A stretch of 31,514 nt of DNA from a virus (IMGVR_UViG_3300045988_120591:1-31514); one strand, 5' to 3'. Positions 1 through 31,514 are shown, numbered from the stretch's first letter. Numbers and translations: made by a program. Notes: a model not told the origin generated them from the letters alone.

Positions 1-55
1 ATCAGTTGTTTCTGCAAATGCCCATTTTGGATCTACTAATACAAGATTTTGAAAA
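1..55. repeat. Terminal direct repeat: bases 1-55 are identical to 31460-31514. This is the assembly overlap of a circular or circularly permuted genome with unique length 31459 bp.
   Basis: Direct comparison of both window ends. One minus-strand ORF runs across the junction in a single frame. Confidence 0.9.
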
Positions 56-654
56 TTATTCATTACAGAGAAATCATTATTATCTATTATTACTCCAATA
101 AATAAATAATTTGCGCTTACTTCTTTAGTAGTTGTAGGTATTTTAACATTAGATAAAGTAGCACTATGTATTGTTTGACCATAAAATTGAAATTCATTAG
201 CCCATTTTCCATATGCTTCATTAAGATTAGTAATCTCCTGGTTATTTAGATCAAAATGAGATGTTTTAAAAAACCCTCCTTTTCTACTTAAATCTCCACT
301 ATTTAACTTTACATCTGCATATGTTTGAGCAGAACTTATAATACTACAAAGAAGTACACCATCTATATTAAGGGCTAATTCACTTAAATCGGCAGTAAAA
401 CTAATTACTGTAGAATTAAGGCCAGATCCTCTACCCATTCAATCCCTTTGTATATCATTTATAGTTCCATCATAACTGCTAAATACATAACTGCAAGGAT
501 CAACTATTGTAGTACCTTGAGGAACTGGATTAGCAACTGTAACTATTTGTGGATTACAAGGATTGATAGGCCAGACTTTGGTACTGCCAACATAAATAGC
601 AGTACCTTGTCTGTCACCTACATAAAATGTTTTTAAATCATCTCTAATATTCAT
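1..654 (-). CDS. DUF285/BspA-like leucine-rich-repeat protein, paralog 2, N-terminal part. The whole protein is 373 aa and continues across the circular junction into 30992..31459. Candidate receptor-binding protein.
   Basis: ATG at 652-654 lies directly after the TAA of the fibre gene. I translated 56-438 codon by codon: the frame is open, with a single TGA at 439-441, and it is in phase with the ORF at the other window end. Confidence 0.6.
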
Positions 655-655
655 A

Positions 656-2791
656 TTATTCTACAATTAAATATTGTGTATTAGGATCTTTAGTTGATAA
701 ACTATTATACTCTGCTTGAGTTAGAACAGTAATAGTCTCTATTTGAGGTTGAGTTCCAGTTCCAGCTTCAATATAGTTTCCAGCAGGCTGAATACCTAAA
801 TCTGATAAACTCTTATTGCCAGATAACTCAACAGAATTAATCTGAGGTTTATTTGTTAACTGAGTATAGTCAGTAGTCCCTCCACCTCCAGATATTTCAA
901 GATTACCTTCTCCTAAAATACTTTCACCATTAATAGTCTTTATATTAGTACCAGAAACTAACTGTTCTTGATAACTATGATAACTAGTATCAGCAGATAC
1001 TCCAGTTGGAGTAATAGTAGTTTGAACTACAGTATGATTAGCTGTAGTACTTTCAAAATGGAAAGTAGCTTGAATATTTTCTCCTGAAACAAAACATACT
1101 TCTGGAGCTGCTATATCACCATAACCTAGAATACTTACATAATAAAGCTCAAATGGTGTTTTATTAGCTATAGCATTCTTAACAGCAGCGAAATCTCCAG
1201 AAAGATGAGTAGTGGAATTTATAAATAGAAATGGAATATTAGAGCCACTTTCAATTTCTATATTACCTTCTCCAAGTAAAGACTGACTATTGATTGTTTT
1301 GATATTAGTTCCACTTACAAGCAAATCTTGCTTAGTAGCCATCTCTTTATCAAGAGAATCAATCTTATCTCCATCTTCTTCTTGTTTTGTTTTAATAATT
1401 GATATATCTGAAGTATTAGTTGCTACTTGAGTAGATAGAGATTCTACCACAGAAGAATCAGCTTTACCAGCAAGTTCTGTTTTTGTTGCATAATCTCCTA
1501 CAGGCTGTTTAGTAGCAAGCTGCTCATCAACATAAGTCTTATCTGCTTTACCTGCTAAATCTCCAGAAACCTCTGCTTCACTTACAAAGTTAGAATCATT
1601 AGTAAGCTCACTAATTTTAGTTGGAATATCACTCTTTAAAGCATAATCACCAACTGGTTGGTATCCAGATAAATCTACAGATAATTGGGATTTATCTTCA
1701 TTAAAAGCTAATGGAGCTTGTGGAGTAAATACACCTTGCTTAGTTGCAAGTTTCTCATCTACTTCATCTTTAGTATAACCTTTATTAGTAAGATCAACCT
1801 CAGTAACTTTAACAGTCATATTACCATTATTTACTAAGATTGCATTAATAACTACTAATACACCATTATCTTGAAAATAATAGCCATATAAATCAATAGT
1901 TTCGGGATGCTCAATAGTTGCAACAGGAATAACTATAATATCACCTTTATATGTAATCTGGCAGAATAAATAGAAGTCCAGATTAGTTCTAATAAAGTCA
2001 TAGATATGTTTCTGTCTTACAGGATCATTCTCATCTAAATTAAGTAAGAAATGATTCTCAAAAGCAGAGATTACATTATCTATAATAGATATATTCTTTC
2101 CTGCTGTAAGCGTTCCCTGTTTTGAAGCTATCTCTTTATTAATAGCTGTATTTAAAGCATCAATTTCAGCTTTGGTATATTTATCTGCTAATTGTGCGTA
2201 TAGAGGACCATTAACAATACCAGCTTGATTAGTCTCTGTATTATATATTGGAAGTTCAACTGCTTCTCCAGTTTGATTACCAAATACAGGAGCTAAAGTA
2301 ACTTTAGATGGGACTGATTGAATATTAATGGCAGGTACTATTGAAGCTGCTCCAGATAATTCAGTTCCATTTAAAGATGGTTTGTTACGAATAGTATTAT
2401 AATCTGCAGAAATAGTATTCTCTTCAATTACTATACCGTCACCTTGAACGAGTGTATTTTGCTTTCCAGCAGTGGCTTCAGTAATCTCTGTAGTTACCTC
2501 TTCTTTAGTTGGATAGTCAGCTAGTTTCTCAGTAATCTGATTATCAACATCTTCAATAGAAGGAATTCCTAATTCTTTAGAAGGAATATTTCCATTTAAT
2601 TCAACCCCATTGATTTCAGGCTTAAATTGAAGATCTTGATAGTTACTTGATCCTAACTGAGAACCATCCATAACCTTAACTTCATCATCCTTGTCAATAA
2701 CAATAACTTTAGTCACATTTGACTTATCTATTGTTTCGACTTCAAGGACATTAAGATAGGGAAGAATTGTCTTTTCAGTTTTGTTTGCCAT
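656..2791 (-). CDS. Tail fibre protein (711 aa) with internal repeats
   Basis: Uninterrupted ORF ending in TAA. Repeats include LVSGTNIKTIN..S.LGEGN.EI (x2) and KP.ING.EL.GN (x3), plus ATKQ/GKADK fibre-like periodic motifs shared with 30097..30750. There is no Trp codon of either kind. Confidence 0.6.
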   Translation of the reverse strand: MANKTEKTILPYLNVLEVETIDKSNVTKVIVIDKDDEVKVMDGSQLGSSNYQDLQFKPEINGVELNGNIPSKELGIPSIEDVDNQITEKLADYPTKEEVTTEITEATAGKQNTLVQGDGIVIEENTISADYNTIRNKPSLNGTELSGAASIVPAINIQSVPSKVTLAPVFGNQTGEAVELPIYNTETNQAGIVNGPLYAQLADKYTKAEIDALNTAINKEIASKQGTLTAGKNISIIDNVISAFENHFLLNLDENDPVRQKHIYDFIRTNLDFYLFCQITYKGDIIVIPVATIEHPETIDLYGYYFQDNGVLVVINAILVNNGNMTVKVTEVDLTNKGYTKDEVDEKLATKQGVFTPQAPLAFNEDKSQLSVDLSGYQPVGDYALKSDIPTKISELTNDSNFVSEAEVSGDLAGKADKTYVDEQLATKQPVGDYATKTELAGKADSSVVESLSTQVATNTSDISIIKTKQEEDGDKIDSLDKEMATKQDLLVSGTNIKTINSQSLLGEGNIEIESGSNIPFLFINSTTHLSGDFAAVKNAIANKTPFELYYVSILGYGDIAAPEVCFVSGENIQATFHFESTTANHTVVQTTITPTGVSADTSYHSYQEQLVSGTNIKTINGESILGEGNLEISGGGGTTDYTQLTNKPQINSVELSGNKSLSDLGIQPAGNYIEAGTGTQPQIETITVLTQAEYNSLSTKDPNTQYLIVE

Positions 2792-2845
2792 ATTATTTTT
2801 CTATAAAATATAAATTATTCATTATGTGGTATATAAACAAAATAA

Positions 2846-2871
2846 GGGGCAAGTAAATTAATACTCGCCCC
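2846..2871 (-). terminator. Rho-independent terminator after the capsid/tube genes
   Basis: GGGGC(A)AG ... CT(C)GCCCC stem. On the minus strand it is followed by TTATTTTGTTT and sits 12 nt after the tube gene stop. Confidence 0.6.
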
Positions 2872-2882
2872 TCTTTCTGTTA

Positions 2883-30095: not shown

Positions 30096-30096
30096 A

Positions 30097-30750
30097 TTAG
30101 ATTACTTCACCATTAATTGTATCAAGAGTAGTTGAAATATTACCAATCTGAGCTTGAATAGCTGAAATTTCTCCATCTAACTCTGTCATCTTTGTATTAT
30201 ATGTATCTGTAGTTACATAGTTTGATAACTCACTTTTATCTGCTTTAGTTGCAACTTCATCTTTAGTAGCTAATTCAGATACATCAGGAATCTTATTCTC
30301 TACAGCTGTAAGCTCTTCTTTAGTAGCAAAATCACTAGTATCAGGAATTTCTGCTTTAGTTGCATAATTACTTAAATCTACAGATAATTGCAGACCTTCT
30401 CCATTTCTATGTAAAGATAGAGGCTGATTAGCTTGGAATACTTCCATTTTAGAAGTCTCTAACTCCTCAACTTCTCCTTTAAGATTAGTAATCTCAGTAT
30501 TAATTGGAGCAAGTTTGGCATCAATAGATTGATCTACTAAAGGTGGAACTTGATCTTCAATACTTTCTGTTACTTTAGTATCAATTAACTCTTCTGCTTT
30601 CTCTTCAGAAATGTAATTACCTTTAGGTTGGAATCTTTCATCTGCTTCAATCTTAGTATAAGAACCAACAGGAAGTTGTCCAGATTCAATCCCACATTTC
30701 TTACTTACATAGAAAGTTTGTGTATTTTTAGTATTCTTAAGTATAATCAT
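30097..30750 (-). CDS. Tail fibre-like protein 2, 217 aa
   Basis: Periodic YATKAEIP / FATKEELT / LATKDEVATKADKSEL motifs like those in 656..2791, with a coiled-coil C-terminus. Confidence 0.55.
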   Translation of the reverse strand: MIILKNTKNTQTFYVSKKCGIESGQLPVGSYTKIEADERFQPKGNYISEEKAEELIDTKVTESIEDQVPPLVDQSIDAKLAPINTEITNLKGEVEELETSKMEVFQANQPLSLHRNGEGLQLSVDLSNYATKAEIPDTSDFATKEELTAVENKIPDVSELATKDEVATKADKSELSNYVTTDTYNTKMTELDGEISAIQAQIGNISTTLDTINGEVI

Positions 30751-30752
30751 AA

Positions 30753-30989
30753 TTATCTAACTTTTATTGATTCCTCATACTCTTTAGAAGCTTTAATAGC
30801 TAACTCTTTATATTCAGCATCCTTATCTAAAGAGACTTCTGATAGATGCTCTAAATCGCAACTTAAAGGACAGATACATTCAGTAAATGAACTATACACT
30901 TTAATATCCATTCCTTCTTTATAGTTAGTAAGTACATAACCTTCTTCTGGACTAACTACTTTATATTTTTCTTTAATTTCAATTTTCAT
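30753..30989 (-). CDS. Hypothetical protein, 78 aa
   Basis: ATG at 30987-30989 (MKIEIKEKYKVVSPEEGYVLT..) follows the TAA of the upstream gene at 30992. Confidence 0.45.
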   Translation of the reverse strand: MKIEIKEKYKVVSPEEGYVLTNYKEGMDIKVYSSFTECICPLSCDLEHLSEVSLDKDAEYKELAIKASKEYEESIKVR

Positions 30990-30991
30990 AA

Positions 30992-31514
30992 TTATGCAAT
31001 TCGATTTATACTTCAATTCTTTGAAGCTATTAATGATTTCTGTTCATCTGTAAGTTTATCATATGCAGTAGATTTTAATGATATACTTGTATAAGAAGCT
31101 ACTGCTGTACCAATAGATTCTGCTATAGTTTGTAATGAATCTGTAGATAGATTTGGAGATTGTGCAAAGTAAAGAACTCCTCCTTTAGTTAAATTCTCTC
31201 CTAATCCATTTAAAGCTCCTACAGTTACTAATTCTGGACAATTTGCAGCAAAACTAGTACAATCTGTAACAAGATAACAATCTATTTCTGGTGTAGCTGT
31301 TAATCTACTACAAATATTAAACATATAGCTTATATCTGTAATTCCAGTAAAGGTAAAATTACTTGGAATAGTTGTTAGATATAATGCTCTATGAAACATA
31401 TGATTACAATCTCCTTTAAATGGAATATTAATCGTTATATTATCTATATTAGTAGCTCTATCAGTTGTTTCTGCAAATGCCCATTTTGGATCTACTAATA
31501 CAAGATTTTGAAAA
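30992..31514 (-). CDS. DUF285/BspA-like leucine-rich-repeat protein, paralog 2, C-terminal part (31460-31514 duplicates 1-55)
   Basis: DUF285-type repeats ..HMFHRALYLTTIPSNFTFTGITDISYMFNICSRLTATPEIDCYLVTDCTSFAANCPELVTV... Reads through TGA at 31013 (..ASKNWSINRIA) to TAA at 30992. Confidence 0.6.

Follow-up and report, generated by a model that had tools for sequence, protein, structure and literature searches.

The viral sequence IMGVR_UViG_3300045988_120591:1-31514, a stretch of 31,514 nt that was analysed in full and is called the window below, raises the question of how a phage can have UGA decoded as tryptophan (Trp) when it carries no suppressor tRNA, release factor or aminoacyl-tRNA synthetase gene of its own. 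The answer that we tentatively prefer is that the phage itself induces the change of code in its host, with no tRNA gene involved, and the way in which TGA is distributed over the genes of this phage and its relatives is the evidence on which that answer mostly turns.

Open-reading frames (ORFs) of at least 100 amino acids (aa) cover 0.80 of the window under the standard code (table 11) and 0.81 with TAG as sense, compared to 0.95 with TGA as sense, which also extends the longest ORF from 715 to 1165 aa; the near-complete coding of the recoded genome described in the first-pass annotation was thus recovered. With TGA as sense, the window resolves into 40 closely spaced genes, most of which lie on the minus strand. 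Their stops are TAA in 35 cases, TAG in five and TGA in none, so that the phage needs release factor 1 (RF1) only. Three paralogous HNH genes share the motif NLEWCT, with its Trp written TGG in one copy and TGA in the other two. Aligned by tblastn with standard-code relatives, TGA positions faced F 54 times, W 30 times, Y 25 times and G three times among 189 aligned residues, the F residues coming mostly from a single site in the large terminase (TerL) and several other sites being mostly W. Since W, F or Y outnumber G by 109 to 3, genetic code 25, in which UGA is Gly, is excluded. Exchanges between TGA and TGG among close relatives are symmetric, with 39 in each direction, which is the behaviour of synonymous codons. 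The coverage gain, the homologous residues and the symmetric swaps together point to TGA being a sense codon for Trp, as had been proposed, and not for Gly, and annotation under table 11 fragments about half of the clade's genes.

An exact direct repeat of 55 bp, the usual overlap of a circular assembly, joins the two ends of the window, which is a complete circular genome with a unique length of 31,459 bp; the absence of a tRNA gene is, therefore, not due to truncation. A reading frame stays open over the junction, making one gene of 373 aa (2 TGA and 3 TGG) rather than two, and this gene is unbroken in 25 related contigs with a different permutation. It encodes a putative virion or fibre-region protein that matched no Pfam family, and the earlier gene map, in which 1-654 stood as a gene of its own, is corrected accordingly: the gene runs over the junction to 30992. 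The GC content is 29.5%. No integrase was found in the window, and the genome is that of a virulent tailed phage. The gut clade to which it belongs is uncultured but widespread, with related contigs of 29-33 kb, and is common in IMG/VR and public gut assemblies. No cultured relative with a known host was found, as megablast gave no match and TerL was at most 29% identical to those of GenBank phages. A viral contig of 148,631 bp (IMGVR_UViG_3300045988_175865, loci L124 and L183) was rejected as a prophage, being a head-to-tail concatemer of a ~ 29.8-kb clade genome: L124 13811-16066 is 100% identical to L183 6737-8992, and the last 2.26 kb repeat the segment ~ 29.8 kb upstream. No host information can be taken from it.

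ARAGORN found no tRNA genes in the window, and Rfam returned no tRNA at E ≤ 1 over the whole window or at E ≤ 10 when the four large gaps between genes were scanned one by one. Relaxed ARAGORN runs (-ps70 to -ps90, with intron, mitochondrial and circular settings) produced only scattered noise within genes, and these candidates were rejected. Across 105 related loci (1.63 Mb), which were anchored on the TerL, capsid and portal genes and together span the whole genome, no tRNA was detected. Pfam scans took in 38 of 40 ORFs, the capsid candidate at 3448-4353 and the protease at 5586-6176 being the exceptions, and revealed no release factor, aminoacyl-tRNA synthetase or deaminase domains, five ORFs (656-2791, 2883-3407, 4375-4989, 16223-17470 and 23880-24449) being covered through PHROGs, precomputed Pfam domains or matches to other families. 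A motif scan of all ORFs for cytidine deaminase, GGQ/SPF and HIGH/KMSKS signatures gave nothing relevant. The first-pass annotation had noted that the phage and its gaps lack a suppressor tRNA, a release factor and a synthetase, and the dedicated searches bear this out; all three are absent across the whole clade. In a sister code-4 clade (TerL 57% identical), the sole tRNA is an 88-nt tRNA-Ser(GCT) just upstream of the early operon (L003 6154-6241, L005 1806-1893, L006 3467-3554); L002 and L004 are without it, and L004 has a T5orf172 gene in its place.

The identity of the host was approached through expression signals and integrated relatives. The promoter motif TTTG-N17-23-TAnnTTTG (TTTG at -33, TAnnTTTG at -7) has five matches in the window compared to 2.0 expected, four of them intergenic and correctly oriented, and is about 20-fold denser in non-coding than in coding DNA of 77 relatives, while sigma-70-type sites are not enriched in the window (91 versus 121.5 expected). 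The four Bacteroidota-type promoters of the first-pass annotation are, therefore, well placed. Its statement that gene starts lack Shine-Dalgarno (SD) sequences also stands, as an SD core was present at 2 of 40 starts against a background of 8%, and at 0-17% in relatives compared to 35-46% in two Bacillota prophage control loci. The BACON-like tail domains are a weak clue: BACON was the best match, but all matches were sub-threshold (BACON_2 at 19.5 bits, BACON at 17.2 and 16.6 bits, with a cut-off of 25) and were obtained only with W placed at TGA, X at these positions giving nothing. The 19.5- and 17.2-bit matches lie at the C-terminus of the 1147-aa tail protein, in a segment in which both Trp are written TGA. 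The small, single-domain M15_3 endolysin scored above threshold, and this confirmed peptidoglycan lysin argues against a wall-less host, such as Mollicutes, as had been suggested.

A scan of species-representative genomes located TerL relatives (39% identical, with a tail module in common) within 189-kb and 587-kb contigs of a Bacteroides metagenome-assembled genome (MAG), where their cellular neighbours encode a Y-family polymerase, an MFS transporter and a MutS-like protein. Helicase homologues with 45-47% identity occur in prophages beside BACON proteins and integrases of Bacteroidota type with Arm-DNA-bind_5 and Phage_int_SAM_5 domains. The bins to which the closest standard-code relatives had been assigned (Acutalibacteraceae, Clostridia and Bacteroidia) were set aside as untrustworthy, because these relatives are phage-sized contigs without SD sequences. 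On these signals and relatives, we consider it likely that the host belongs to the Bacteroidota, and most probably it would be a member that uses the standard code.

A TAG-recoded prophage was observed beside a tyrosine integrase in a standard-code chromosome of 39% GC (L192; ENA ERZ28598220 scaffold_71, 132 kb). Table 11 breaks the structural genes of this prophage into pieces, coverage rising from 0.61 to 0.95 with TAG as sense, and its helicase homologue, 45% identical to that of the window, is intact in the standard code. TAG as sense also raises the coding density of a 19-kb contig from a Candidatus Scybalousia bin (L019; TerL 34% identical) from 0.69 to 0.96, so that one terminase lineage has code 11, code 4 and code 15 members. 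A locus from a Rikenellaceae bin (L017) was dropped as a second code-4 lineage, its TerL having no in-frame stop; no claim is made on it because the coding-density measure is unreliable at 45% GC.

The use of TGA differs between genes. TGA makes up 53 of 136 Trp codons (0.39) and, since the other NNA/NNG pairs are 0.72-0.96 A-ending, is under-used for the composition of the genome; it is present in 22 of the 40 genes (55%). Per-gene counts across 77 code-4 relative loci show that this is a property of particular genes. TGA is common in the relatives' tail, terminase, lysin and nuclease genes, with 258 TGA and 308 TGG in the 1147-aa tail protein, 48 and 24 in TerL and 56 and 74 in the lysin, and the helix-turn-helix (HTH) regulator has 24 and 4. 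It is rare clade-wide in the superfamily 2 (SF2) helicase (0 TGA and 5 TGG in the window; 1 and 111 in 24 relatives), the first ORF of the leftward operon (0 and 20 in relatives), the capsid candidate (0 and 4; 1 and 206 in 54 relatives), the tube-like gene (0 and 3; 2 and 155 in 52 relatives) and the scaffold-like gene, which has no Trp codon in the window and 0 TGA and 35 TGG in relatives. The holin candidate has 0 TGA and 2 TGG in the window and 3 and 58 in relatives. Within the window, the head module has TGA at none of its 11 Trp codons (post-hoc Fisher p = 0.007). Trp sites of the tail genes are mostly polymorphic for TGA and TGG, whereas in the capsid and helicase genes TGG is fixed at such sites, or a single rare TGA is seen, indicating that TGA arises in these genes without spreading. 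A bias at position +4 was considered as a sign of leaky readthrough and was not found (p = 0.14 in the window, p = 0.18 at the site level in relatives).

One syntenic standard-code relative (L130; IMGVR_UViG_3300029905_000019, 30,128 bp, 28% GC) has a major capsid protein (MCP) that is 67% identical. None of its 19 ORFs contains an in-frame TGA or ends with TGA, and two further relatives (L014 and L133) are also without TGA stops. This loss of TGA plausibly looks like the codon-capture stage just before reassignment, and, with a standard-code relative lacking TGA stops in support, the recoding may plausibly be of recent origin.

The explanation that we put forward, as a tentative choice to which we would not give an even chance, is a phage-induced code switch in a standard-code Bacteroidota host, achieved with no suppressor tRNA gene. 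It corresponds to the first of two readings left by the first-pass annotation, that of a standard-code Bacteroidota host with decoding by some unseen means. Under such a switch, the genes needed first or most abundantly would be written to be correct in both codes, a set comprising the SF2 helicase, leftward ORF 1, two 46-aa ORFs and the capsid, scaffold and tube-like proteins, and about half of the genes (tail, terminase, portal, lysin, regulators and homing nucleases) would need UGA to be read as Trp. Most likely, host release factor 2 (RF2) would be neutralised and host tRNA-Trp(CCA) would then read UGA; alternatively, host tRNA-Trp would be altered by modification or editing. Either way, the switching agent would be one TGA-free early phage product. 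UGA is read as Trp without a tRNA(UCA) gene in other settings, by near-cognate readthrough by tRNA-Trp(CCA) when RF2 is limiting, by the Hirsh suppressor and through C34-to-U editing of tRNA-Trp in trypanosomatid mitochondria; the likeness to these is only in the possible mechanism, with which the RF1-only stops of the phage fit.

Given that the early helicase has no TGA, decoding was apparently unavailable at the start of infection, which argues against a constitutive resident suppressor. A standard-code phase early in infection thus appears possible and apparently maintained by selection, and a temporal phasing of translation would be predicted from the gene sequences. This departs from the first-pass annotation, in which infection was held to require UGA decoding from its outset and TGA was cited in the leftward operon behind its early promoter and in the rightward gene at 20924; with the helicase and leftward ORF 1 nearly or wholly free of TGA in relatives, that requirement is not supported, and the leftward example holds for gene 2 of the operon, in which TGA at codon 25 is kept in relatives, and not for gene 1. 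In its fullest form, for which our confidence is lower again, the proposal is that a phage of ~ 40 genes might switch its host through a TGA-free early product that disables RF2 or remodels or edits tRNA-Trp, in which case UGA would both time translation and cap the dosage of proteins.

Several points weigh against this proposal. The host is judged only from expression signals and from distant relatives (39-50% identity), and the signal of TGA avoidance comes from relatives with common ancestry, which are not independent samples; within the single genome, the heterogeneity of TGA use does not reach significance (permutation p = 0.15). None of the phage genes could be linked to RF2 or tRNA-Trp: the small ORFs free of TGA have no family match, and the fold of the helicase is that of an ordinary SF2 enzyme. 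As there is no +4 bias at TGA, there is no signature of context-dependent readthrough, and genes with five to seven TGA need very efficient decoding. Conserved TGA codons lie directly behind host-type promoters in leftward gene 2 and in the 53-aa ORF after the promoter at 23359, and because promoter-proximal genes carry them, the division into early and late genes is one that we only infer. The avoidance of TGA in abundant proteins could also be ordinary codon optimisation.

The efficient, context-independent decoding that sits uneasily with an induced switch is what a cognate suppressor tRNA gives, and a standard-code host might hold such a resident tRNA(UCA) on its chromosome, a prophage, a plasmid or a co-infecting code-4 phage, to be exploited by a clade without any tRNA as a satellite uses its helper. 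A possible source is illustrated by the zeta crAss-like phage Lera on Parabacteroides, which carries a Sup-TCA tRNA (PMC12386605). We regard this as rather unlikely, because the tRNA is missing in all of the at least 77 code-4 relatives from many samples, an obligate second element would be fragile for a clade so widespread (P0024 alone is indexed in 123 collection blocks), and a constitutive tRNA would leave the near-absence of TGA from the early helicase unexplained. Nor was any such element seen, although contigs of the same samples could not be searched. A suppressor RNA could instead be encoded by the phage in a form that tRNA finders miss, whether split, permuted, degenerate or within a coding region, as Borges et al. 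raised for missing suppressors (10.1101/2021.08.26.457843), and the four largest gaps do share a conserved structured element. That element is, however, an AT-rich hairpin of ~ 50 nt without a cloverleaf or UCA loop, the other non-coding DNA is short and occupied by promoters and terminators, and ARAGORN in all modes and Rfam at E ≤ 10 found nothing tRNA-like in any gap, which makes a hidden suppressor of this kind extremely improbable.

The remaining explanations place the reassignment in the host. The second reading of the first-pass annotation, a walled host with Bacteroidota-like signals that itself reads UGA as Trp, would account for the lack of phage-encoded decoding machinery, for TGA in genes behind host-type promoters and for the absence of a +4 bias, and the code-4 phages in INPHARED are mostly host-matched (PMC11210395). 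A host-matched phage would not be expected, however, to write 39% of its Trp codons as TGA at 29.5% GC when the other pairs are 72-96% A-ending, or nearly to exclude TGA clade-wide from its helicase, capsid, scaffold and tube-like genes. The recoded codon is found in 26-71% of genes in recoded phages of standard-code hosts and in ~ 90% in host-matched code-25 phages (10.1101/2021.08.26.457843), and the 55% found here falls inside the former range. Further against such a host, a close standard-code relative exists (the one with the 67% identical MCP), other relatives are integrated in standard-code Bacteroides-type chromosomes, and such a lineage, were it abundant in the gut, would stand out in MAG catalogues by its low coding density. 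To our knowledge, no free-living code-4 Bacteroidota have been described. This reading is accordingly rated as very unlikely. A classic UGA-recoded host, either Mollicutes (Trp) or Absconditabacteria/Gracilibacteria (Gly), would suit the low GC content, the code-4-like coding density and the lack of a tRNA, but is already largely refuted and has next to no probability left: the residues aligned with TGA exclude code 25, and the peptidoglycan endolysin, the Bacteroidota-type promoters, the absence of SD sequences, the relatives in Bacteroides contigs and the lack of similarity to Mycoplasma or Spiroplasma phages all oppose it.

Comparison with published systems places a UGA-recoded phage without a suppressor tRNA among known phenomena. 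Sup-TCA tRNAs were found in only 35% of code-4 phages by Borges et al., who suggested modification of the host tRNA or translation machinery where suppressors are missing (10.1101/2021.08.26.457843), and in 15% by Cook et al. (PMC11210395), whose supplement names no hosts. With 65-85% of surveyed code-4 phages already without a Sup-TCA tRNA, the first-pass view that either of its two readings would be unusual is overstated; the phenomenon itself is already known and the clade adds one further example. Like the known TGA-recoded gut phages, this phage reads TGA as Trp, comes from gut metagenomes, has part of its genes recoded and close relatives with another code, and keeps its replication gene compatible with the standard code; those phages, too, often lack a Sup-TCA tRNA. 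The Jade, Sapphire and Agate TGA-recoded clades have genomes of ~ 127-200 kb, compared to 31.5 kb and ~ 40 genes here, and the present case differs further in that a complete genome and a whole clade are without any tRNA. In the published picture, structural and lysis genes are enriched in recoded stops, whereas here the capsid, scaffold and tube-like genes are nearly TGA-free. The split between early and late genes is a mixed one in this phage: the helicase and leftward ORF 1 are TGA-free and the tail and lysin genes are recoded, but TGA is missing from the capsid, scaffold and tube-like genes as well, and it is present in some of the genes nearest to promoters.

The zeta crAss-like opal-recoded phages share with this phage Bacteroidota hosts and TGA as Trp, and several of them (3075_90106, ctddo16, ctvkg4 and ctPTU4) have no TCA suppressor listed (PMC12386605). 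They differ in their genomes of 155-190 kb, their 4-32 tRNAs and their own RNA polymerase (PMC12386605); this phage encodes neither a tRNA nor an RNA polymerase, and the low identity of its TerL to those of GenBank phages sets it apart. The code-4 phages of Mycoplasma and Spiroplasma likewise use UGA as Trp without a phage-encoded suppressor, but infect wall-less hosts, in contrast to a phage with an M15 endolysin and Bacteroidota-type promoters that has no sequence similarity to them and that, unlike host-matched Mollicutes phages, under-uses TGA and avoids it in specific genes.

Borges et al. and Cook et al. both ask how the reassigned stop codon is decoded in recoded phages without a suppressor tRNA, and the clade described here makes this open question more tractable, being small (a complete 31.5-kb genome), uniformly tRNA-less and abundant in public gut metagenomes. 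A phage-encoded switch must precede the reading of UGA and must, therefore, lie among the ~ 16 TGA-free genes, of which the early candidates are few: the helicase, the 79-aa membrane protein and the two 46-aa ORFs. Any proposed mechanism must account for why TGA is consistently kept out of the helicase and of the virion proteins made in the largest amounts. A specialist would not be surprised by the case, yet the open question is unusually easy to test in it, since what is specific here is the combination of a small complete genome, a tRNA-less clade and recoded codons kept out of abundant structural genes.

Table 1 Features of the window in order of position, with the support for each assignment
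Feature	Coordinates	Strand	Support or remark
Terminal repeat, left copy	1..55	.	Assembly overlap of circular genome; identical to 31460..31514
Junction-spanning gene, 5′ part	1..654	-	Start at 654, on through 31459 to 30992
Fibre-like protein, 711 aa, repeat-rich	656..2791	-	0 Trp codons here; relatives 35 TGA, 1 TGG
Probable tail tube protein, 174 aa	2883..3407	-	Suggested by position; phrog_19091 virion protein
Major capsid protein candidate	3448..4353	-	phrog_11320, phrog_1623 virion structural protein
Scaffold-like acidic protein	4375..4989	-	Suggested by position and composition
GIY-YIG/NUMOD3 homing endonuclease	4973..5584	-	TGA-free; PF01541 3.2e-8
Prohead protease candidate	5586..6176	-	phrog_24921, phrog_3017, phrog_34096 head maturation protease; weak Peptidase_S78_2 match in relatives
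17-mer copy 1 (GAGTAAAAAACTTGACA)	6256..6272	-	3′ arm of conserved ~ 50-nt hairpin
Tape-measure-like protein, 780 aa	6372..8714	-	1 TGA; suggested by size, coiled-coil and hydrophobic segments; syntenic in relatives
Tail protein, 1147 aa	8716..12159	-	7 TGA, 12 TGG; BACON-like at ~ residues 985-1045
HNH/NUMOD4 homing endonuclease	12152..12631	-	5 TGA, 0 TGG; Pfam
Tail protein, 726 aa	12634..14814	-	5 TGA, 11 TGG; sub-threshold BACON-like, residues 339-392
17-mer copy 2	15367..15383	-	Followed by hairpin TAGGGAG/CTCCCTA
Large terminase TerL	16223..17470	-	1 TGA, aligned with F or W in relatives; PF03237, PF17289
HNH/NUMOD4/NUMOD1 homing endonuclease	18541..19107	-	Pfam
HTH_50 protein, 85 aa, sigma-70 region 4-like	19089..19346	-	TGA at codon 35; candidate transcription regulator
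HNH/NUMOD4 homing endonuclease	19330..19845	-	3 TGA; Pfam
Leftward operon gene 2, 144 aa	20097..20531	-	D...EVK motif, putatively PD-(D/E)xK-like
Leftward operon gene 1, 79 aa	20531..20770	-	N-terminal hydrophobic segment; TGA-free
Promoter, Bacteroidota-type (TTTG...TATATTTG), for leftward operon	20816..20847	-	Motif scan
T5orf172/MUG113 nuclease-like gene	20924..21409	+	3 TGA in C-terminal third; Pfam
Promoter, Bacteroidota-type	21398..21428	+	Motif scan
Promoter, Bacteroidota-type	21480..21511	+	Followed by terminator-like hairpin 21540-21558
17-mer copy 3	21575..21591	-	Antisense between two plus-strand genes, toward leftward operon
SF2 helicase, 573 aa, helical C-terminal domain	21655..23376	+	AlphaFold and Foldseek
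Promoter, Bacteroidota-type, ahead of three small ORFs	23359..23390	+	Motif scan
ORF, 53 aa	23395..23556	+	One TGA; relatives 28 TGA, 0 TGG
Two 46-aa ORFs (23559-23699, 23701-23841)	23559..23841	+	Conserved, essentially TGA-free
Bidirectional intrinsic terminator between convergent units	23845..23879	.	Hairpin
NUMOD1 homing-endonuclease-like gene	23880..24449	-	3 TGA; Pfam
M15 peptidoglycan peptidase, endolysin	24449..24901	-	1 TGA; PF08291 53 bits; phrog_894 1.7e-29
Holin candidate, 53 aa	24901..25062	-	Suggested by sequence and position: two hydrophobic segments
Portal protein	26830..27945	-	1 TGA; PF04860 59 bits
GIY-YIG/NUMOD3 homing endonuclease	27893..28588	-	5 TGA; Pfam
17-mer copy 4	29022..29038	-	Terminator-like hairpin 29022-28995 directly after
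Junction-spanning gene, 3′ part	30992..31459	-	Same 373-aa gene as 1..654
Terminal repeat, right copy	31460..31514	.	55 bp, same as left copy

The AlphaFold model of the helicase (predicted local distance difference test score 82.9) matched DEAD-box, RecQ and Mfd helicases and the herpes simplex virus 1 origin-binding protein in Foldseek, and the modelled protein is a probable replication initiator. The idea that this TGA-free protein is an unusual factor was rejected on its generic SF2 fold with a helical C-terminal domain. Upstream of its gene, at 21480-21565 on the plus strand, a promoter is followed after ~ 30 nt by a hairpin (GGCAGG...CCTGCC) with a T run, a pair that could give a very short transcript or act as an attenuator. 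The list of gaps in the first-pass annotation had omitted 23377-23879, which contains three small plus-strand ORFs and the bidirectional terminator; the two 46-aa ORFs among them are candidate early effectors. In the lysis module, the M15 lysin proposed earlier is well supported by its profile matches, while the holin assignment depends on a length of 53 aa and two hydrophobic segments.

Each of the four large gaps between genes contains a single exact copy of the 17-mer GAGTAAAAAACTTGACA, always on the minus strand, compared to an expectation of 0.37 even when up to three mismatches are allowed. It forms the 3′ arm of the conserved hairpin (TGTCA...TTGACA), and in 59 related loci the 17-mer and hairpin are found at the syntenic sites. 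Three of the four copies have another hairpin, richer in GC, behind them, which is terminator-like on the strand of the element at 29022 only. In leftward transcription, the element may serve as a late promoter, in antitermination or in RNA processing, and it is possibly bound by the HTH protein at 19089-19346. It was also considered as a hidden suppressor and rejected, being a plain hairpin with a second hairpin and no tRNA-like features.

Free-standing homing-endonuclease genes number six or seven per 31 kb, and their presence and position vary between close relatives. The T5orf172/MUG113 gene, which is one of these, is probably mobile, because it is variable among relatives. Between the homing-endonuclease genes, the share of Trp codons written TGA varies from 0 of 2 to 5 of 5, perhaps because the genes differ in origin.

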